Shown piece by piece: positions 30,176 through 64,000 of a stretch of DNA of 64,000 nucleotides. Numbering within the stretch: the first letter of the stretch is position 1; each line of letters opens with the position of its first letter. Made by a program: the position numbers and the translations under genes. Under the pieces are notes generated by a model. That model did no database searches, was not told the origin of the DNA, and worked only from the letters and a program-made list of their open reading frames with translations. Source of the DNA: Saccostrea cucullata (lineage: Eukaryota); contig NW_026930899.1 of NCBI RefSeq assembly GCF_032062105.1, positions 124,001 through 188,000 on the forward strand, given 5' to 3'.

Positions 30176-31028
30176 GATTATCAAACTGTGCATTGAAAAT
30201 TTTATATCTTTCAATAGATATGAATATGTTAGCGAAAATGGTGAGTTCTAGACTTAATTTTAAGTTCAATAGAGTAAATATTCATACTAAATGTTTGAAG
30301 TTCCAGGGATTTGATGCTGGTTAACGAATAAACTTCCGTCGAACTCGTATGATGATATTCTCAAATTCTGTATCGACAGAGACATATAAAATCATATTGT
30401 TTTATATGTCTCTGGTATCGATATTTCTTCAAATGTCTCTGATGAACTTCTGTAGCTATGAGTGGTTTGACAATCCTGAAAAAACTTTGTTTAGATTTTT
30501 TTTTCTCATATCTATGTATAGAAATAGAAAACTATTTTAAACTACTCTTCAGTTGAACCATACCTGTATTAGATAGAGAAAGGAAACGCACAACAGATAT
30601 ATTGTTGAATGCAGAAAAGAATAGATTTATTTCTGTCAAGCATGGCCTCACTGAATATACAATATGTATGTAGCTTATAGAGTATGAAATCCTGGTTCCT
30701 GGACTAGAGGCGCACAACTCAAATTTTGGCTCAGGCCTAAAAAATCAAGATCAGCTGTGACTTAGCTACCATTTACCTACATGTGGTTAATTCCTTTTTT
30801 TTAAATTATAGAATGATTAATATCTTAGATCTTTTATATTATGTTAGAAAATGAATACAAAAAATATTGTGAAGTGGAAAAGTCATAAGGATTAATTGCT
30901 GACGTTTTCACTGGGTTTTTTTCAGTAAACAGGAGAATCAACAGTTTCATATTGAGATGCATTACTTCTGAAGAAAATAACTAAACTGGGCACCCTTTGA
31001 AAAGAAAGTGATACAAGAAATTGTTACA

Positions 31029-34000
31029 ATGAATGACATAGAGACAGATCGCCCTGAACTGGTTCCAGATGCAGTTCCCCAGAAGGGCTTTGACTATGGG
31101 CAATTCCTAGTGACTGTGGACAATGGATTAGACACGAGTGATGTGGAAAACCTTAAATTCTTACTTAGAGGTGTAGTCCCCGACTCCAAGCTACAGAAGG
31201 CCCAGAGAGGTCTTGATTTATTTAATGAACTCCAGAACACAGGTGTGATCGACATGGAGGAAGGGGACCTGGAACTGTTAGAGGAGTGTTTGTATAGAAT
31301 TCATAGGAAGGATTTACTGAAGAAAATAGCAAGGGATACCATAATGGTGGAACAAAGATTGCGGAGACTACAAGAAGAAATATACAGAAAAGATGTCAAT
31401 TACATGGAATCCAACAAATTCTTGTCACCTTTCAGGTAACCATCCTGTAATAGGTGTTGATTTTGAAAGTGTTTTGCATGTACATGTTTATCATTTTCTT
31501 TCATTTGAATTATTTATAACTCTGATGGGATAATTTATAGAGATATCTCTCTATATTTGTTACATGTATCAGTGAAAATGATAACTGACCTAATTTTAAG
31601 AATTGTAGAATTTTTTTTATTTGAAACAAACAAACAATTTTGATATTGATAAAAATTATTTCAATGCTATAGATAAAAATTAATGTAACATTTTCATGAT
31701 TTTGGTAAAAATATGCATACTTTTATGAAAACAATTTCACCAGAAATACTTTTGTTAAAAACTTAATCGAAGATCTATTTTTTTATTACTTCAGAGTGCT
31801 GCTATTTGAGATTGGAGAGGACATTGACGATGAAGAATTTGGTTCAGTGATGTTTGCTCTTACATCGCTTGTTCCTAAAGGACAGCTTTCTAAAATGAAG
31901 TCCATATTTGATTTGTTTCTGTTTTTGGAGAAAAAAGATGAAATGTCCCATTTGAAAGTTGATGTTTTACTGAAAGTGCTTAAAGTCATTGACAGGGCTG
32001 ATCTTATACCAAAAGTCAACAAATACCTCTCCAGTCAAAGTAAGTATGAATAGAGCCAAAAAATTCTTTTTACACTAATGGTAAATTTCAATTTATTGTT
32101 TTATATCGTTACTTTAGGATTTGAAAATTCTTGCTCCAAGGCTTTGATAAAAATATTTTTTGTTCATAAATCTCCTTTAAATTCATTGAAATATTGCTAT
32201 TATTTATACTAGGTTTTCACAGTACAATTTTAAATGTGCATGCTTGTAGTTTAAGTATTCAATGTGTGCAGGTGTAATGTTTTTTATATAAACTTGATTA
32301 CCATGATAGGTAAGAGGAATAGCCCATCCCAGTTCACTGGCCCCACACAGATGGAAGTGGAGCCCTCAGAGGGACCACAACTTCACCCACCACCCCAGCT
32401 GCCTCCAATGGGACAAGGCACCACACTAGCCATGGGTAGGCTGAAGTTCTTTGAATTAACATAACATTTTATTGTTTCTTTAAAATTTTTGAATGACTTT
32501 GATACATTTGATTCTTTTAATTGTTTTAGCCGCTCCATTAGCAGATGGACTTTTAATAAGACTTGCTGATGTTATTTCCAAAAGTCCAGACTGGAAAGAC
32601 TTGGCCCCATTTCTGGGTTTGGAGGACATGACTATATTAGCTTTAGTTAATGATGATAACATGATGCCATCATTAAGGGTATATAAGATGCTTCAGCACT
32701 GGCAGAGAGACGTGATGCAGAACGACGAGACTTGCCGCGTGACTATGATAGGGGTCCTCCAGAAGTTTAGAATTACAGAGGGACTGCAGATACTGGGACA
32801 AACTGTGGAGGAAGACGAACACATTCCTAACCCAAGTAAGTACAATCCAGTAACTAAAATGGTAACAAAATTAGATAATGTTGATATCAGAAAGCGTTCC
32901 TGCTTTCAAAATAGCATTGCGATGATAATTTAAAACTGAAACACCTGACTCATTATCAAAAACAATATATGTTGAATATAAACTAAAGTTACATGAGAAA
33001 TCTTGAGAATAAGAAATGCTTTTACGAGTTGAATTATTTATAGCTCCAATGGACTTGCGTTCTTTGTATCAACCTCCGACTGGGGAAATTCCTTTGTCAT
33101 TGAGACACCCTGCCCCGGAGCCTCTTCCTGATATCCAGGCCCTGAGACCAAACATGTCTGAGATCGAGACACAAACTTCCATGTTGATTCTTCCTCATGG
33201 AAACCAGCCTATCAGAGACCACAACGAAGAAAATTTATCAGTATCAAACAGTAAGTGCAAATTTCTATCTAAGCTATAAACATTTGTGCATAACAACTAA
33301 ACAGGAAGTGCACATGTATGTCTTTACATGTAGATAATTAGGTAATTATCGTTAATATTTGAAGTAATAAGTAGCATCATTTTAAAAAAGTACAAGGATG
33401 TTGCATCACAGAAAGCTTGATACATTTAACTGTTATTTTGTTGAACCATTGTTAATTTCTGCTCCATAATGCAGTCCTTTTACTCTAATTAGCTTTAGAC
33501 TGCAGTGTTGATCTCTCTCTCTTTCTCTCTCCTTCTCTCTCTCTCTCAATGAGAAAAATATAAAATGTATATATAGCAATGGTTAAACATTTAATATAAC
33601 ATTTAATTATATGATAGCTGAGGCCAGGATACAGCTTGCAGAGTTACATCCCCCTCCCTCAGAAAACAACAATGCTCAGTCAGCGAGAAGTATAAGGGGT
33701 GTGTAAATTCTGTGTTCAATTTTATATGTTAATTACTTCATCAGATCTATGTTAAATAGTTATGTTGAATGTTACCCCTGGTAAATCGCGAAATAAATTT
33801 AAACCCTTGGTAAATAAAAATACAGTATATACTTCATCAGAGACATTTGTTATCTAATAGACAAGCTGCTTTCCAGAAACTGTTTATTTTCTTTCTACTT
33901 TTTTCCTTATCACTGTATGGCTGATGAGAAGTTTCTATAAATTGTTGGTTCTATATGTTTTAAGGTAATGTAATGGAGAATCTAGGCCAGATGATGAATA

Positions 34001-35498
34001 GAGCACACATTGATGATGAGATGGATCTGCCGTCATATCGTATGGACAGAAAACCAAGAGGTGAAGCCTGAAAATTCATCTTTATATCTCAAGAAAATCC
34101 TGGAAATTGTGCCCATCCATTTCTTAATAGAGTTGACCCCTCTTTTCTTTTAAAATTAAAGTAAATGCTACATATATCCAAAAGTAAATTAAGGGACTTT
34201 TTATCACAAAGAATGAATTTTATATACCGTTTCTGCAAGTGCACTTCCTATTTCTCTGTCTCTTCCTCTCTCTTTGGCAAAAACGCTATATCAGTACGTA
34301 ATACATTGTTATGTCTTACCTTTGTAGGCATTGCTTTGATAATCAACAACATGAAATTTTTCAAAGTGCCAAACGATCCAGAAAGCAAAGAGATGCCAGA
34401 CAGAACTGGCACAGACCTGGATGCAGGTGCATATTCTATCTGGTTTCTAAATTTCATGAAAGACCCTTTTTAATGAGCATTATAAGAAATTCCACTTGTA
34501 AATTTAAAATGGGAAAAATTTTATTGGCATTTATTGAAATTTTCATAATTTACAGATAAATTAACCTACATTTTCCGTAAACTTGACTTCCGTGTGAAAC
34601 GTTATGACAATCTAGAGGACTATGCAATGAACAGGAGACTTGTTGAGGTGTCCTTTGAAGACCATTCTCAGTTTGACTGTTTTGTGTGCTGTATTTTGTC
34701 CCATGGTGTCCTGCAGAACATTTATGGCACTAATGGTAGATTGGTCAGAATCTCCGAGTTAACGGGAATATTCCGATCTGGGAAGTGTCCAAGTCTGGCT
34801 GGAAAACCAAAGTTGTTTTTCATTCAGGCATGTCAAGGAAGGGAAAAACAAGGAGGTAAAAGTTCTTGTCTAAACATTTACAGACTATAATACATCAATA
34901 AAGAGGTAACTGTTAAGATTTTTTCTTATAATTAAAATCTTACAAATATTTGCAATTTCATAATTACCTGACAACCTGCTCGATAATTTTTCATTCAGGT
35001 ATTGACATTGAGATGGACAGTGATATTGAACCGGACAATGGCCGGACCTCTGAGATGATCCCCGATGAGGCGGACTTTGTACTGGGGTGTGCCACTGTAC
35101 CAGGGTACGTGTCCTACAGAAGTAGGTCACAGGGAAGCTGGTTTGTCAACAAACTGGTGGAGATGTTAGATAAATATGCCTACAGGTAGGTCTCATGATT
35201 TTTTATAGATCAAAATAAGGTAGAAAATTAGATTTGATGCAGAAAAAAGGATGATAAGATTTTTCACTCATTAATGATAAAAAACTGGAAGATTATACTA
35301 CTTGTACTGCTTTTCAGTTCTCTAGCATCTGTTGTTTTTAATAGTATACTTCCAATTTTCTTCAGATATGACCTGCTGAGTATCTTGGTCAAAGTGAATG
35401 AGGAGGTAGGGAGAGCCAATGCTCGTTTGGAGGGTGGAGTCTACAAACAAATCCCTGCCCCCCTGGTAACCCTTAGGAAGAAGCTGTTCTTTCGATAA
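31029..35498 (+). CDS. CASP8: Caspase-8-like initiator caspase, DED-DED-DD-caspase, 728 aa, 11 coding exons
   Basis: Exons 31029-31435, 31795-32039, 32310-32435, 32530-32835, 33044-33250, 33618-33698, 33965-34060, 34328-34426, 34556-34855, 34999-35185, 35366-35498; all GT-AG and phase-consistent (2187 nt). DED1 (LKFLL..RIHRKDLL), DED2 (LFEIGE..IDRADL), death-domain-like exon (WKDLAPFLGL..YKMLQHW), YRMDRKPRGIALIINN, ILSHG, QACQG, IEMD linker, DEADF, SYR..GSWF, LRKKLFF. Confidence 0.93.
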
Positions 35499-50163: not shown

Positions 50164-50768
50164 TTAATCGCAAGCCATCCAGCGCATGCCTAGACCGAAC
50201 AGTTTCGTGTCATGCATCGTTCCCATCCACACGGTAAATTCCGTCTCATTGGATCCCAAAAGCTTTATCCTAGCTCGTTTATTCTCGGCGTAGTTTATAT
50301 CGATCATTGTTATTCCGTACATTACAGACGGTGTAGCTGAAAATGGTTCTTTGAATGTTATGGTCTTGTTGATTGGGAAAGGTGATTCTGGGTATTGATA
50401 CATGTCAACCTCCCCCGACTCACCTGTGAGAAAAAGACGGAATTAAGTATTCTTAATTCGCAAAGAGATTTCAATGAACATCTTTATAAAAAAAATATAG
50501 TGATATAAAAACTATCAACCAACTTACATTTTGCTGTAAGATTAATTAAAGAATATACTTACATTTTGCTGTTGCCAACTTAAAAACATCGTCTGGGGAA
50601 AAAAGCAAATTTTATACATTAATTTTAATTTGACATTATCATTCTAAGATTGAGATACGGATTTAAAAATCAAAATCAAAGGAAAACTACATATATGTAC
50701 ATTTGCTTACATATGGCAAGAACTAAAATCACACAACACAAACTTCTGTTAATGCTCTGAGTCCTCAT
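50164..50768 (-). CDS. Secreted H-type lectin domain protein B (115 aa)
   Basis: Exons 50768-50711 (MRTQSINRSLCCVILVLAI), 50592-50563 (30-nt microexon), 50423-50164; in frame (348 nt); ITFKEPFSATPSVMYGITMID...NKR...F..WMGTMHDTKLFGLGMRWMACD. Confidence 0.88.
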
Positions 50769-54436: not shown

Positions 54437-55248
54437 TTAAGGACAGGCCATCCAGGTCGCACCGAGTCCGTACATCTTTGTGTCGTGAAGGGTCTTCAAG
54501 ATTAGAGTAAACTGAGTCCTATTTAAGTGCTCCAGTTCCACTACGGCCCTAGTGTTCTCAGCAAAGTTGACATCCAACATTTTGATTCCGTACATAAAAG
54601 CAGGTCGCTCTGCAAAAGGTTTGTCAAACACAATTGTCTTTCTGATAGGAAAAGGAGAGACTGGATATCCCGCGTATTCCATTTCTCCAAACTGACCTGT
54701 AAAAACCAAACACTGTGTGTGAATGATGATTACTTCTTCTGATGTCCTGTCGATTCTTATCTCACCAAAAAAAAAAAAAAATTGCATGGAACTTTACTGT
54801 AAAAATGATGTAAATCCATATCTGTTTGTTATAATGGAAATAAAACAGTACAGCTAATGGCATACTCACATCCAGATTCTGCAAATTTGATTCCTGTGTG
54901 AAAAAAAGGTAAATAAATACAATGTATAGTGGTTAATTAGCAGACAGAAAATTGAAATAAATAATGAAAAAAAGTTAATAATACCTATATGTAAAGTATA
55001 CATGTTTTTACCTTTTTTAACACATTATTAATTTCTCATCACCAGGCATTTAAGAAGAAAGCATGAGAACCATATTTCTTATAACAGTTTCCTCCTTTGG
55101 TTAAAAAAGTGTATCCACACACAATGAACACAACTGAATTTTTAAAAAATAATAATAACTACAGCAAAAATGGCACTAAAATGATAATGATTTAAAATAA
55201 TAATGTCCACTCACCTAGTAGACAAAAGAACAAAAGGATCGGCTTCAT
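54437..55248 (-). CDS. Secreted H-type lectin domain protein C (105 aa)
   Basis: Exons 55248-55215 (MKPILLFFCLLG), 54893-54870 (24-nt microexon), 54696-54437; in frame (318 nt); IVFDKPFAERPAFMYGIKMLD...NTR...F.....LHDTKMYGLGATWMACP. Confidence 0.88.
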
Positions 55249-56010: not shown

Positions 56011-56681
56011 GGTAGTCCGATCCAGAGGTTATGAAAATCAGGCTTTGAGTAATTGAAAATGCTCACAAAGAAGTATCAGATTTCTCAAAGTAATGTGTAT
56101 TTACCCACGGTGTGGATCAAAACAGTATCTTCAAAGTTAATCATATTATGTAGGAAAAATAGTAAATCTCAAATAAATTTTCAGGAAATGCGAATAGAAC
56201 TACCTAAAGCTTATTTTCTTATTGAAAATCGATCAATTAATACATTTTAAAAATAAAAATCATAGGTATCCAGGCTTCTAAAGAAAATTTTTATGATATT
56301 CATGTTAATTCGATACTTTAGTTTCTCCTATTTACTTCGATAATTTTATAATACATAGTGTAGGAAGTATTCCCTATCACAGAAAACACCATAAATCATT
56401 TCTCATTTCATATCATGCTAATAAACATTGATAACGAAGGCTAGATTTAAAGATCTTCGATTTCATTTGATATGTAATTTTTACTTCTTTTTATGAGGTT
56501 CAAATATTTACTTTTTATATATCCTTTCTTAAAACTTCAAAGAACCTTGAATCACGTTATATTAAGAGGCATAAAATGAAAATTGTTGCATGAAAATATT
56601 TCATTTTCAAGCTTTATTTTGAGACTTTTTGAATTAAAATAAATAAAAGAGGTATTCTTCCTGGCTGAGGATCGGATATCC
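56011..56681 (-). mobile_element. TTAA MITE, inverted diverged copy of 46795-47431
   Basis: Ends ggtagtccgatcc / ggatcggatatcc with TTAA flanks; collinear reverse-complement similarity. Confidence 0.8.
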
Positions 56682-57771
56682 TTAATATATAAGACATATA
56701 AGCAAATATACTTTGAATTTTTCATGTAGTCAGAAACCAGACAAGAATCCCTCCTTAGGGAAATTGTAGAAAAAGTATTTTAATGGGAATAAATTTTGTA
56801 CAAGTGTAAATAAATATTTTGTGTTTCTAATTTCATTCATAGTCTAACAATAAAAAATTAAGATTTATTTTGAACTTATTTTATTCACAATCAAATGGAT
56901 CAACAACAAGTTCTAACAACTTTCTAATCCCTCTCCTTAAAATAACATAATAATTATGCAATGTAATAAAAATAAAAATCTTTATCTGAACTAGTATTTG
57001 CCTGCATTGATTACAGTATTCCATGGTATTTCAGCTTAAATTTTTCGGAGCCCATCTTAGAGGACTAATACTATTCGTTGCACAGAGTTGTCTTTTCGGT
57101 GTATATGCATCTACTTTTGAAGACTGGGTACTTGTATATTCATCATAACCATTCTAGAAGACATATTTGATACAACAAGCAAACTTTGGCTTTAAAACTT
57201 TATCAGCATGAGGCAAAACTTATTTCATTTTTCAAATGTGTATTTACATTTTCTTGTCTCTGATTATAGGTTGCATTGAAATTAAAGCACTGTGTACCCT
57301 CTACACTACGAAATAAAAACGTTATTTAAACTGAAAAGATTTTTCTTGAGTGGAGATTGAACAAATGATGTATCTTTAATTGAAAATCTCTGGGCATTGC
57401 TTCCATCATTGAAAAGTTAAAGACGTATTTGTGTTAAAGTCCTTAGTGTGATATTGAATATATTTTCTGTCGAACAATGAATTGGACTCATCGGTAAACA
57501 GAGACTACATTTACTGTAGAGTAATATTATGTGATTGGTTAACATTGACGTGAACTACATATGCTTCGCTGATCACCTTTCATATTTCCTTTTTGATTGA
57601 GAAATTTAATTCGAAACATGACAATTGAAAAACACAAATGATTTTTGTACTGTATTTGGTTAGAACTCGTCAATTTTTCACCACCTTCGCGTTTGAACTG
57701 ATCGGACTGAAACAACCTCAATACGGATAAGTAGCAAATAAATTAATAGAAAATTGGGAATACTTCAAGAT

Positions 57772-59453
57772 ATGGATGAGGAATTGTATCGGGAATTTAC
57801 TTGTCCGATTTGTGCCGACATCTTCACTAATCCCAAAGGCCTTCCCTGTCTGCACTCCTTCTGTAGAGAATGTCTGCGTGTATATATCACCAAACAGCAG
57901 GAAAATAAAACAAGGAACTGTGAGTTTTCGTGTCCAGTTTGCCGCCATAATGTTGTGCCGTCCGATGTTCGGAAACCCGTGGAAGACTGGGTGGATCAGT
58001 TCCCGAGCAACCATCAAATCATTAGCCTCATGGACATCATGGTGCCAAAGAGAAACGATAAACCCTGTAGACTTTGTTTGAAGCGAGAGATCAACACAAA
58101 AGCAGTGAATCTCTGTCGGACGTGCCAAGAGGAATACTGTGCCGACTGTTCAAGGTTTCATCAGCTTCTTAAGGCCACCAAAGGTCATAAGCTCTTCCCC
58201 CTAGAAAATATATCACCGCCATCTAGGTCTTCTACGGCGGTGACGACTCTGTCTCTTCCTGAAGACCATGGTAGCTTATTCGAGTACACAATCGAGTGCA
58301 CGGGCTGCAAACAGCTAAATGTTACCTCGGAGACGGATAATGCTGAGGTTTGGATAACGGGTGCAGTATTTTTGGAAGACGATAAAATACTAATGGCAGA
58401 CAACAGAAATTTGAAATTAAAACTGTTCTCTGCAGATTTTAAATTTATAACTGAAGATGATTCCTTCAAGCCTTACGATTTAACATTGATGGATAACGAA
58501 ACTGCCGCAGTTGGTGATTCGGGTTGTATCAGGTATTGTACTGTAGAAAATAATTCATTAAAATTGACAAAAACTTACAACAACGATTGGAAAATTTATG
58601 TGCCAAAAATGCTGTCATTGTCGGGTTACTGTAGAGGAATATGTTCCAGTCAAAGTAAATTAGCCGTGTGCTCTGGTAAAGACTTGGACAAACGAATCAT
58701 TCTCCAGGATATAGAAATTGTCCGCCATATTTGGCAAGACATTGATGGAAAGAGTCTGTTTAGAGAACCATGGTACTGTGTGATGAACGAAGCTGCGTCT
58801 TTGATCTTTGTGGCTGATGGAGTGGGAATGGAGGGACACGTGATCTGCGTCACCACACAGGGTCGGTTCCGGTGGAAACACAAATTTGAAATGCCGAGAG
58901 GTTTATGTATCTGTGGCGATCACCTTTTGGTTGCAGACATGAAAGACAATAGCATTAAGGTATGTGACCATGCCATCATAAAGCAGAGACTAGTTAGATA
59001 TTTCTTATCTTTAAAAATGAGGAAATTCACCATCAAGTACAATATTGCAGTGACACGTCTTCGGTAAAGAGGCAGTGCATCTCCGTCAGAAGCGAACAAA
59101 TTTGCTTATGAAAAAGTTTAAAACAACAGATTGTGGCTGAATCTTATTTAAAATACAGTTGAAATTTTATATTGGTTATGACCTGTTAATATACCATTTC
59201 ATTTCAGGTGATATCGTTTGATGGAGAAGAGGTAAAGACCCTCCTTACAAAGGAGGACGGTATTCAGCGCCCTCAGTGTGTGGCCATCAACAGGACGGGA
59301 GACAAGCTGCTGGTGTCATCGTGTCCCCCCTACAACAACGACTTTGTGTCTATATTTGATATGACCTACAAAAAGAAAGAGAAGAAGAGACCGGTGTCTG
59401 TAGGGTCTGCTGTTAGGAGAAACCGACAAAGTGAACTCTGTTCTATCTGCTGA
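57772..59453 (+). CDS. TRIM-NHL-like E3 ubiquitin ligase (RING, B-box1, NHL/beta-propeller, C-terminal CaaX), 477 aa
   Basis: Exons 57772-58959 and 59208-59453 (GT at 58960, AG at 59206-07, phase 0). C3HC4 RING CPIC..PCLHSFCREC..CPVC; B-box CRLC..CRTC..YCADC..H..GH; propeller repeats (ITG..ILMADN, PYDL, PWYC..IFVAD, PRGL..LLVAD, PQCVAIN); AATAAA at 59476. Confidence 0.9.
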
Positions 59454-59716
59454 GGCCATCATCTTTGGCTTTCTCAATAAAGAGATACAATATACACGGA
59501 GTTGAATTTTTTAACCTTATTATTTGCAGATGATTTTTTTCACTTAACATTTGACAGAAAATGTTAAAACTTTACAAATTAAATTTGTATTTGTTTATTT
59601 ATTGGGATCTTTCTTCACTCACTGCAGTATTCTCTGAGTCATTTCTCTCTGATCTTGATGACATGCCCTTAAGTGGAATTAAAATACTACTACATGTTTC
59701 TCTAATGATACTTCTA

Positions 59717-59995
59717 CACTGAAAAAAATAACTAGTGAAAGTCACGAAGAAGACTAGTAAATTGACTGTCCATACAATCACTACCTTGAAAGTAGTTTTA
59801 CTAGGCATTCGGTAGATTTACTAGATAATATTAGCAAATCTAAGAATTTATGAGTAACTTTCACTAGGTATTTAAGTATCTTTACGACCACTACTCCACT
59901 TTTCACTATCTTAGCTCGTAAACAGAGTGATTACTAATCATGAAGAATGCTTTACTAGGCATACTAGTTAAATCAACTAGGTATTTCTTTCAGTG
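59717..59995. mobile_element. CACTG-ended MITE with TA flanks
   Basis: TIR cactgaaaaaaataactagt / actaggtatttctttcagtg; internal tactag repeats. Confidence 0.65.
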
Positions 59996-61519: not shown

Positions 61520-63763
61520 ATGGGAAGACCAGGTACTATCTTTCATTACAACAACTTCAATTTGATAGTTTAATTCTCTTGATATACTTATAAAAGAGCA
61601 TGTATCAATTACAGTTTACTAGCTGTGGAGTGCCTTAAAATGAAAAAATATGCATATCATGATCATCCAAGCACACCAAAACAGTAATGAGTAAATGTTA
61701 TTGTTAGAAGCTTAGAAAAATGTGATCTTCTAATGTCATTATTTTTAGAAATAAATTTAGCTTCCACTATGAAGCACAATATTTACACCTTTCTTTGTGA
61801 CTGGGATACATTTTATTTGTCCCCGGTACCAAGAAGGCCGAAGTTCATCTTTTAATTTTCATGAAGAGATCACACATGTTCATCATCAATTCATCATGTC
61901 TGACAGTGATACAATTTTGGAAAGTTTTTTAACAGATTTGCAGTTTAATAAAATGTACCATAGGATTTGTGTCCAATGCAGGGAATCCTTTACTTATTCA
62001 TACTAAAAAGTGTCTACCACAATCACAGGAACCCCTAGTTACTGAGTTTATAGAATAATCTAACTGTGTCTTGGGATAATCCCTCACCACAGTAAGAATA
62101 CTTCCCATATACTCGCACTGTAGCAAAAAAATGCAGAATCGCTCCAAAACAATTTTGAAAAGTCCAAAAGTATTTGCACTGAAAATAACTTACAAATTAA
62201 TAATCACAAACATTTATGAGGTTGTGTATGCCTTTAAACCTAAGGTATAATCCACATAAAGACGAAAATTCAACTATTTTTATGAACGTTTTTTCTCGCT
62301 TCAAATTTACATGTCATCATGTTTTAACCATATGTCACTGTTACAATTTGCAATACCTTTTTCACTCTCAGTCTATGCGAAAGTCACCGGACCGTCGGTT
62401 TTTACCGGTAAAATTTAGGTCGGGTCGGTAAAAAATTTCAGTATACAGGACCAAATATAAAAAAATTAGGCCAAATAAATCTAAATTAAGAGGTACACAT
62501 GGTCAAATTCCCCACAAATATCCTTTATTTGACCAATTTAGTAGTAATACCTGATTAATTTTTATGTATTACAACCCTGTCATGGTTACAGACTACTAAT
62601 TTTACCCCTATTTCATTGACCACTCAAGTAGTTCCAGTTTAAAAATAGAGGTTTCTCCTTAAAAATTCTTTGGGGCGTTTATGGAGTAGAAAGCGGTTAT
62701 TTTTGGGCATAAATGGAAAGGAGAGGGTCTGAAAAAAATTATAAAAATGATATTAATGGGAAATTCTGCTTTTAAGCGCGTAGTAGGAAGGATGTAAAGA
62801 GGCCAATATTTACCCTTTCCTCGAAGAGAAAGTGAAAAAAGCAGGGTAGGGGTTATTTGCGATGCCATAAAAGGACTTGCAGACTATGAATGTTCCTGAG
62901 AACTTGGTAAATTTTTGGACTTGAAATGGTCTTACTCTGTGCCAAGTTTCAGGTAAGTTGAGCCGGTGTAATTTTTTAAAATATTTTTTATGTTATAAAG
63001 GAATGTATAGCAAAATAATTGGTAGTCTGTGTCCTCATGATCGTTTTTATTCTAATTTCGAATTTCCTCTGTCAATGATTAGAGATCTTTAGATAGCTCA
63101 TACGTAGGTTTGGTTGGGAAAATATTTAGATAGCTCATATGTAGATTCAATTGGGAAATTATTTTCAAATGATCATTGAACTTGAGTAACCATAATTAAT
63201 TGTTTCAGGAAAAAATAAATATGCATTGAAAGTGCATATTAAATTTCATAAAATCTTTGATACAGTGTTTGTTGTATAAGTCAAATATAAAGAAAAAAAT
63301 GCATGCAATTGTATAAATAGATACCTTTTACAAAGAAAAGTTATGTAATATTTAACTTGTCTATTTCACTCTGAATTTATTTAAGGTTAAATATCACAGT
63401 GTGAATTAACCCCATCCCACCCACCCTCTCAATATTAGTATCATAATGATGTATGGATTTTAAAGGGGAGAAAAATTCAACTATTTTAAAAAATGGTTTG
63501 GTCTGGTAAAAATTTTATTTTTACCAGATTGTCACTGTAAAAATTTTAAACTTTTAGACTGCACTCTCTTGAATTTTGATATTTAAATTTGTAATGGACA
63601 TTTTTTTCAGATTTCACACCGCGAGGCAGAGGAGGTGGTCGTGGTAGAGGAGGAGACAGAGGGGGGAGGGGAGGAAGAGGAGGCTTTGGGGGTCGAGGTG
63701 GTGGTGGCGGTAGAGGAGGCTTCGGAGGTCGAGGGGGTGGGGGCAGAGGCGGGAGAGGAGGAG
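61520..63763 (+). CDS. FBL: Fibrillarin (rRNA 2'-O-methyltransferase), first two exons; gene continues beyond the window
   Basis: Exon 1 61520-61532 (ATG GGA AGA CCA G|gt) and exon 2 63611-63763 give MGRPDFTPRGRGGGRGRGGDRGGRGGRGGFGGRGG...; this matches the M(G)KPGFSPRGG start, the tiny first exon and the GAR domain of metazoan fibrillarin. The methyltransferase domain is not in the window. Confidence 0.75.
62369..63561. mobile_element. hAT-like MITE with 6-bp TSD in fibrillarin intron 1
   Basis: Ends cagtcta / tagactg; TSD cactct (62363-68, 63562-67); subterminal ccggtaaaa/ttttaccag motifs. Confidence 0.65.
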
Positions 63764-64000
63764 GTATGTCTGTGATTGTGTAAAGTGTAATGATTTCTTT
63801 GTTATTCTTTACAATTTTGATATTTAGATATGTATATTTGAGGAGGAAAATGTGATGCAGGATGCAAAAAGATTTTCAATAAATATTTTAATTTTGTGGA
63901 TATGTTTTTTATGGGCATTCTCTTTGTTAAAACTGTTTTATTGCAAGAAGGCTCGTTTATTTAATTGAAAACTGTTATGATTTTTTAAATGTAAAATTAC

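Follow-up and report, generated by a model that had tools for sequence, protein, structure and literature searches.

Introduction

TRIM ligases are thought to need their coiled coil for positioning the RING, and to be activated by clustering. Can a TRIM-type protein do without the coiled coil, and could a lipid take its place? This question is raised by one gene of the oyster Saccostrea cucullata, lying on the forward strand of a stretch of 64,000 nucleotides (contig NW_026930899.1, positions 124,001 to 188,000; hereafter the window). The initial annotation, made from the DNA letters, read it as a TRIM-NHL protein without coiled coil, ending with a polybasic cluster and a CaaX box, and suggested that lipid anchoring had replaced oligomerisation. 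The reading we favour, with a probability of about 0.68, is that the gene is expressed and belongs to a subfamily of TRIM-derived proteins of bivalves, and that its product, judging from its sequence, is likely prenylated and likely acts as a membrane-tethered RING ubiquitin ligase.

Gene structure and expression

The gene is made of two coding exons (positions are those of the window):

57772..58959, forward strand: coding exon 1, residues 1-396 (open reading frame from the ATG at 57772; same as RefSeq protein P0001)
58960..59207, forward strand: intron of 248 nt, phase 0, GT..AG (splice sites and RNA)
59208..59453, forward strand: coding exon 2, residues 397-477 followed by the TGA stop codon (RNA junction; single match in its own genome)

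The spliced product (57772-58959 joined to 59208-59453) has 477 amino acids, is identical to RefSeq XP_062568287 (Saccostrea cucullata LOC134230474) and ends in KKKEKKRPVSVGSAVRRNRQSELCSIC at the stop codon. This splicing, on which the CaaX end depends and which had been deduced from the letters, is found in the RNA: six raw reads with four start places cross the 58959/59208 junction in run X23, and contigs of runs X3, X1, X2 and X19 contain it too, i.e. five of the five runs with coverage there (depth is too low in X22 and X24). Inside the intron (58960-59207) the RNA depth is zero. Another last exon, named by the initial annotation as a possible objection, was looked for together with intron retention, and neither was seen in the RNA runs, whose depth is low. 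Besides, a 711-nt contig of X3 spans 57663-58376 unbroken, over the RING, B-box1, the linker and the first blade, and shows no insertion in its coding part, so that the transcript has no coiled-coil exon between B-box and propeller.

Between the RNA runs and the assembly there is a sequence difference of a few percent. Of the 17 coding differences in exon 2, 12 are silent; the expressed allele carries I476V, which turns CSIC into CSVC and retains the CaaX motif, and R466G, by which one basic residue of the tail is lost. An AATAAA lies 3' of the stop codon, at 59476-59481; it reads ATTAAA, another common polyadenylation signal, in the expressed allele. Short dispersed repeats are present on either side of the gene (56560-56760 and 59700-59970), where most reads continue into unrelated sequence.

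Exon 2 has one match in its own genome, as against more than 100 for the canonical TRIM relatives, and no second family member was found there among the scored candidates, a count to be taken as a lower bound.

Domains of the protein

The 477 residues are organised as follows:

57775..57795, forward strand: N-terminal RING-flanking helix, residues 2-8, in the predicted RING dimer interface (structure model, dimer model)
57802..57942, forward strand: C3HC4 RING, C11-C57, then R58 (Pfam zf-RING_UBOX, residues 11-57, E 7.9e-11; conservation)
58012..58041, forward strand: C-terminal RING-flanking helix, residues 81-90, predicted dimer interface (structure model, dimer model)
58066..58188, forward strand: B-box type 1, the sole B-box, with C99 C102 C115 C118 C123 C126 H130 H139 (ligand pattern; Pfam ANCHR-like_BBOX E 3e-4, under the curated cut-off)
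58204..58278, forward strand: short disordered linker, residues 145-169, where B-box2 and coiled coil would be (pLDDT below 50 at 149-166, no helix)
58252-58269, forward strand: SLPEDH, unconserved, inside the linker (alignment)
58279..59381, forward strand: six-bladed NHL beta-propeller, residues 170-454, split by the intron (pLDDT mostly above 90; fold match)
59370..59390, forward strand: basic run KKKEKKR, residues 451-457, kept in oysters, weak or absent elsewhere (alignment)
59439..59450, forward strand: CaaX box C474-S-I-C, CSVC in the expressed allele (translation, RNA, 33 of 38 family records)

All eight zinc ligands of the RING are present. The Pfam match of the B-box (residues 99-140) is weak, and its spacing is that of type 1. 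No second ligand pattern was found in the protein, the canonical relatives giving two Pfam B-box stretches. The SLPEDH motif had been taken for a stub of B-box2; this idea has to be abandoned, as the closest orthologues have Q, P or S in place of the His (other oysters read SLPEDQ, FLPEEP and SLPEES) and the ligand pattern of a B-box2 was not found. By contrast, the claim that there is no room for a coiled coil holds: from H139, the end of B-box1, to the start of the propeller at about residue 170 in the model, there are about 30-33 residues, broken by prolines (the longest proline-free run is 12), which form no helix in the AlphaFold2 model and are encoded within the unbroken RNA contig. An assembly or annotation artefact as the cause of the absent coiled coil was considered; it is excluded by this contig and by the same spacer in all members of the clade described below.

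The AlphaFold2 model was built with an alignment of 100 sequences (mean pLDDT 89), the one with 8 sequences (pLDDT 58) not being used; in it the C-terminal tail is disordered. The Pfam NHL repeat scores 25.2 bits for a cut-off of 20, and by fold the propeller comes closest to the NHL domains of Lin41/TRIM71, Thin, TRIM3 and TRIM2, with Z of 28.5-29.7 and rmsd of 2.5-2.9 A over about 250 residues (Lin41: Z 29.7, 2.7 A, 251 residues; TRIM2, 3 and 71 are tied). The tree among canonical relatives and the PDB sequence and fold matches alike relate the RING/B-box and the propeller to TRIM-NHL proteins. On this sequence kinship the protein is TRIM-like as PMC3503706 uses the term, in the same way as malin, and apparently derived from subfamily C by loss of domains. 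It is not a TRIM in the strict (RBCC) sense, having neither B-box2 nor coiled coil.

A family of bivalve proteins with a CaaX end

Relatives were collected by word-indexed protein searches, a full HMMER search and cluster look-ups. The same short layout is found in S. echinata and C. virginica, both ending with CSVS. Mytilus has two paralogues adjoining by accession, one with CTLC or CTLY and the other with CTIS; the Pinctada member (CFVS) is represented by its C-terminal part only; Sinanodonta and Potamilus have two neighbouring paralogues each, with CSIL, one of them partial. Further member records are P0060 (CVII), P0062 (CTIL), P0073 (CVLL), P0081 (CEIL) and P0233 (CTIL). The named members thus belong to four bivalve orders, Ostreida, Mytilida, Pterioida and Unionida (Pteriomorphia and Heteroconchia). 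The word-indexed and full HMMER searches gave no named member in scallop, clam, gastropod or cephalopod, and in the ESM Atlas we found only clusters of canonical TRIMs of 620-840 aa from molluscs and echinoderms.

No member of the clade has a B-box2 or a coiled coil. Between B-box1 and propeller there are 25-36 residues in the family (88 in P0062) versus 218-411 in the canonical proteins, and a tail of 18-38 residues extends past the propeller, whereas the canonical proteins mostly stop only a few residues from the last strand. The expectation that bivalve orthologues would conserve the CaaX box is borne out, and the loss that would have spoken against it did not occur: a C-x-[I/V/L]-X end is present in 33 of the 38 family records reaching the last blade. 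The other 58 of the 96 family records stop before this blade and are not in the count (in 48 of them the IKV/IQV intron position falls within the last 45 residues, and the remaining 10 are fragments of other kinds). Eleven tetrapeptides are used (CSIC, CSVS, CTIS, CTIL, CTLC, CTLY, CFVS, CSIL, CVII, CVLL and CEIL), and their third letter is always I, V or L. The five records missing a terminal CaaX are faulty or partial gene calls. P0200 is a model fused to a glycine-rich neighbour; P0249 is annotated as partial and stops where its paralogue goes on into the CaaX; P0061, P0238 and P0239, which are oyster exon-2 records, have CSVS followed by W and read-through. This W is most likely a TGA taken as Trp by the gene caller, a stop-loss allele being a conceivable alternative.

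Among the rows prepared for the trees, the C-x-[IVL]-X end occurs in 14 of 16 short-spacer proteins versus 2 of 65 canonical ones, kin rows not being independent, and in these two canonical rows it is part of the last strand. The CaaX box is retained while the rest of the tail diverges, and selection on this box is supported. The protein keeps its standing as a candidate prenylated E3.

The CTIS paralogue of Mytilus (375 aa) has lost about 120 residues in the middle of the propeller; roughly three blades are left, and the CaaX is kept. It is nearly identical over five Mytilus species (records P0004, P0031-P0037, P0233, P0050 and P0224, from Mytilus and mussel-type sources). The short join is unlikely to be a missed exon since it is also seen in exon-1-only records, and the half-propeller is possibly completed by dimerising.

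Records P0060, P0062, P0073, P0081 and P0247 each come from a single gene call and are of full length, the contigs reaching up to 1.6 Mb; this branch may therefore be without the intron common to oysters and to both Mytilus paralogues. In the same records B-box1 gives a weak FYVE score, and a short conserved motif resembling a helix comes after it. The FYVE hits on B-box1 of the unionid-side group are under the Pfam cut-off and we took them as zinc-finger cross-matches.

Phylogeny and evolution

Of 86 rows selected for the trees, five (near-duplicates or a fused model) and two badly cut rows were removed, and 79 were used. With RING, B-box1 and propeller (spacer and tail removed), and read without a root, one branch, with bootstrap 100 and SH-aLRT 95, separates the 15 short rows from the 64 others. 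In the tree of the propeller by itself the clade is found again (95), joined by a single further row on a long branch, P0092, which has no B-box and stops before the last blade. With RING and B-box1 only, the clade is neither recovered nor rejected (p-AU 0.64).

Three short TRIM-like proteins without coiled coil and without CaaX tail, P0066, P0174 and P0057, fall outside the clade. Loss of the coiled coil must therefore have happened repeatedly among bivalve TRIMs, and it does not require a lipid anchor. Within the clade both features coincide, and from these sequences neither appears to require the other. The ancestor would have been a canonical RING-B1-B2-CC-NHL gene that lost B-box2 and coiled coil and acquired a tail of 20-38 residues. 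According to the sequences, the clade is without these two domains since before the pteriomorph/unionid split, with the putative prenylation signal retained throughout. Altogether the subfamily is real and conserved. Neither a CaaX-bearing TRIM nor these loci were found described in the open-access literature, as searched through titles and abstract openings; the subfamily is apparently undescribed.

The CaaX end and the charge of the tail

In the oyster protein the cysteine is four residues from the true C-terminus, a2 is aliphatic and the tail is disordered and accessible, as read from sequence, RNA and model. We consider the prenylation of this cysteine likely from its sequence context. For the nature of the lipid, the rule as given in PMC9141697 is that X = S directs farnesylation and X = L or I geranylgeranylation, X = C or Y being outside the rule. 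The CTIL motif is reported to be geranylgeranylated in FBXO10 (PMC11042265), and is present in two family records (P0062 and P0233). CEIL has an acidic a1, which, like an X of C or Y, counts against the prenylation reading.

The polybasic cluster is real: the 25 residues before C474 have a net charge of +7. On the other hand the main basic run lies 17-23 residues upstream of C474, the last strand of the propeller ending with K451-E454 in the model, the charge within the last 10 residues is +2 or less, and the expressed allele has lost R466. Across the family the idea of a K-Ras4B-type polybasic and CaaX signal is not supported. Over the same 25 residues oysters have a net charge of +6 or +7 and Pinctada one of +4; Mytilus-type members range from -1 to +2, the short Mytilus paralogue being at about 0, and unionid-side members from -4 to +5, the acidic tail of P0060 being at -4. 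Plasma-membrane targeting is not generalisable to the clade since this second signal is not conserved. The pattern of sequences is that expected of a prenyl signal whose accompanying second signals differ between lineages, more than of a single address of the K-Ras4B type.

RING dimer and working mechanism

The zinc ligands, I13 and P55 of the RING are kept, and R58, which we take to be the linchpin position, is kept in all aligned oyster and mussel rows. Unionid-side members have K, Q, R or G at the linchpin position, and their helix following the RING is more polar. For two copies of residues 1-150, a symmetric dimer is predicted through residues 4-8, 23-29 and 78-90. Its score of 0.34 is barely over the mark of 0.32; the best of three controls scored 0.00, contacts agree at 100% between runs and pLDDT is at least 78. 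In benchmarks the mark was passed, for microbes, by 21 of 30 pairs against 0 of 23 single chains, and for eukaryotes by 17 of 29 pairs (7 of 16 in animals), 0 of 30 single chains and 1 of 7 cases without an older solved relative. Because TRIM RING dimers are already solved, the pass may reflect what the predictor has learnt from them, and shows likeness only. In the TRIMs studied, RING dimerisation is described as needed for activity, being constitutive or obtained through clustering (PMC9732051).

Since the coiled coil is lost and the CaaX box kept in oysters, mussels and freshwater mussels, a lipid-tethered ubiquitin ligase is likely. In the mechanism that we propose, the cysteine equivalent to C474 would be farnesylated where X is S, and probably C (oysters, Pinctada, most Mytilus), and geranylgeranylated where X is L or I (the unionid-side group and one mussel-type record); in oysters the basic run would act as a second membrane signal. 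Prenylated C474 would hold the propeller at the membrane by a tether of about 20 residues, and the propeller, beside the anchor, could bind membrane-near substrates. Concentration in two dimensions would then allow weakly pairing RINGs to dimerise and to transfer ubiquitin without coiled coil. Such an activation by membrane clustering instead of the coiled coil is a tentative proposal, to which we give somewhat less than even odds. With the same reserve, an ancient bivalve TRIM lineage might have swapped its coiled-coil scaffold for a prenyl anchor and be active only where concentrated on a bilayer, farnesylated basic tails and geranylgeranylated ones addressing different membranes. The replacement of coiled-coil oligomerisation by a lipid, as initially suggested, should be put differently: the coiled coil is gone and the CaaX kept, but the RING-flanking helices are kept too, a RING dimer is predicted, and there are coiled-coil-less relatives without CaaX.

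Other explanations

Shunt-pathway CaaX proteins stay largely cytosolic. The protein might be prenylated, its lipid being a handle for protein binding or trafficking, or be mostly cytosolic like these, a partner bringing the RING to the substrate in the manner of malin. This is suggested by the lack of conservation of a second membrane signal across the clade, by FBXO10, whose delivery is reported to need PDE6-delta and HSP90 despite its lipid (PMC11042265), and by malin itself, described as a RING-NHL protein without B-box or coiled coil (PMC3503706). However the CaaL or CaaI end across the whole unionid-side group points to geranylgeranyl, the more hydrophobic lipid, and the +6/+7 tail is retained in oysters, so that we regard this explanation as unlikely, though worth keeping in mind. 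Doubt may also bear on the catalysis: an anchored adaptor or decoy, its propeller binding protein or RNA targets and its RING being weak without coiled coil, would recall TRIM3, whose RING looks intact yet can be monomeric and inactive (PMC9732051). The linchpin varies in the unionid-side group, and the closest propeller folds include those of TRIM71/Lin41 and Brat, which bind RNA; these NHL matches nevertheless do not show RNA binding, because RNA-binding and other members are tied at 15-20% identity. The conservation of the E2-binding positions and of R58 in the oyster/mussel group, across the divergence of four bivalve orders, and the dimer interface predicted by the model render a decoy rather improbable.

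The terminal cysteine itself could be kept without prenylation, for S-acylation, a disulfide, or metal or PDZ-type binding. Hydrophobic C-termini can serve as PDZ ligands, and CSIC and CTLC have a second cysteine. This second cysteine is however replaced by S, L, I or Y in other members, and throughout the 11 tetrapeptides the first one stays exactly four residues from the end and the third letter is aliphatic, while the length and sequence of the tail vary; it would be quite surprising if such a constraint were due to anything but a prenyl signal.

Neighbouring genes and an expression lead

Exons at 30981-34890 (forward strand) encode, in order, Pfam DED, DED, death domain and caspase; the gene is caspase-8-like, the death domain being additional. 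Upstream of the TRIM-like gene lie two exons for H-type lectin domains (50164-50442 and 54437-54793, reverse strand). An H-lectin-like protein of C. gigas, P0017, shares a cluster with the orthologue of that species, a hint of either a kept neighbourhood or a fused model in C. gigas. At the window end, an RGG-rich exon (63595-63783, forward strand) has no Pfam match; it presumably resembles the N-terminus of fibrillarin or GAR1.

In C. virginica the orthologue, XP_022320261.1, is up by a log2 fold of 3.0 (8-fold, adjusted p 0.002) in the tolerant family 89 over the sensitive family 90 under Perkinsus challenge, as given in PMC9892467. According to the same source it is not up in the other tolerant family and is one of 2,446 such transcripts, which makes it a lead only.

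Comparison with known systems

With the TRIM-NHL proteins (class VII or subfamily C: TRIM2, TRIM3, TRIM32, TRIM71, Brat) and the expanded mollusc genes called TRIM56/TRIM2-like (RING-B1-B2-CC-propeller), the oyster protein shares the RING with flanking helices, B-box1 and the six-bladed NHL propeller; it differs from TRIM-NHL in having no B-box2, coiled coil or filamin domain, in its CaaX tail and in being single copy. It is one conserved single-copy gene amid hundreds of fast-changing bivalve TRIMs, and its clade offers a compact natural system for testing whether membrane concentration alone activates a TRIM RING. If the exchange of coiled coil for prenyl anchor is true, no earlier case of a prenylated single-chain RING ligase of TRIM type was found in the open-access literature searched; this one would be the first, and a natural test of how clustering activates TRIM RINGs. 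Single-chain RING ligases anchored by myristoyl or palmitoyl groups are known (MGRN1, ZNRF1/2, NEURL1, RFFL/RNF34, plant RGLG); these are lipid-anchored E3s too, but by N-terminal acylation and with unrelated domains.

A lone B-box is said, in PMC2533329, to be always of type 2; the oyster clade, contrary to this statement, keeps B-box1 alone. Malin (NHLRC1), as described in PMC3503706, is likewise a TRIM-derived RING and NHL ligase without coiled coil, but it has no B-box, a separate vertebrate origin, and no CaaX reported in the available text. In C. elegans PAR-2, RING dimerisation is reported to give cooperative membrane binding (PMC11294563), a model for an anchor and a RING dimer acting jointly; PAR-2 is not a TRIM, and the available text of that source mentions no lipid anchor. 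K-Ras4B has basic residues upstream of its CaaX as a second signal (PMC11042265), whereas the main basic run of the oyster protein is 17-23 residues from the Cys, partly in the last strand, and strong in oysters only. In FBXL2 and FBXO10 likewise a CaaX lipid puts a ubiquitin-ligase subunit on the membrane, FBXO10 with CTIL (PMC11042265). These two are cullin adaptors, whereas the oyster protein has RING and substrate module on the predicted lipidated chain itself and, if prenylated, would bring a RING-bearing addition to the few prenylated ligase subunits such as these two.
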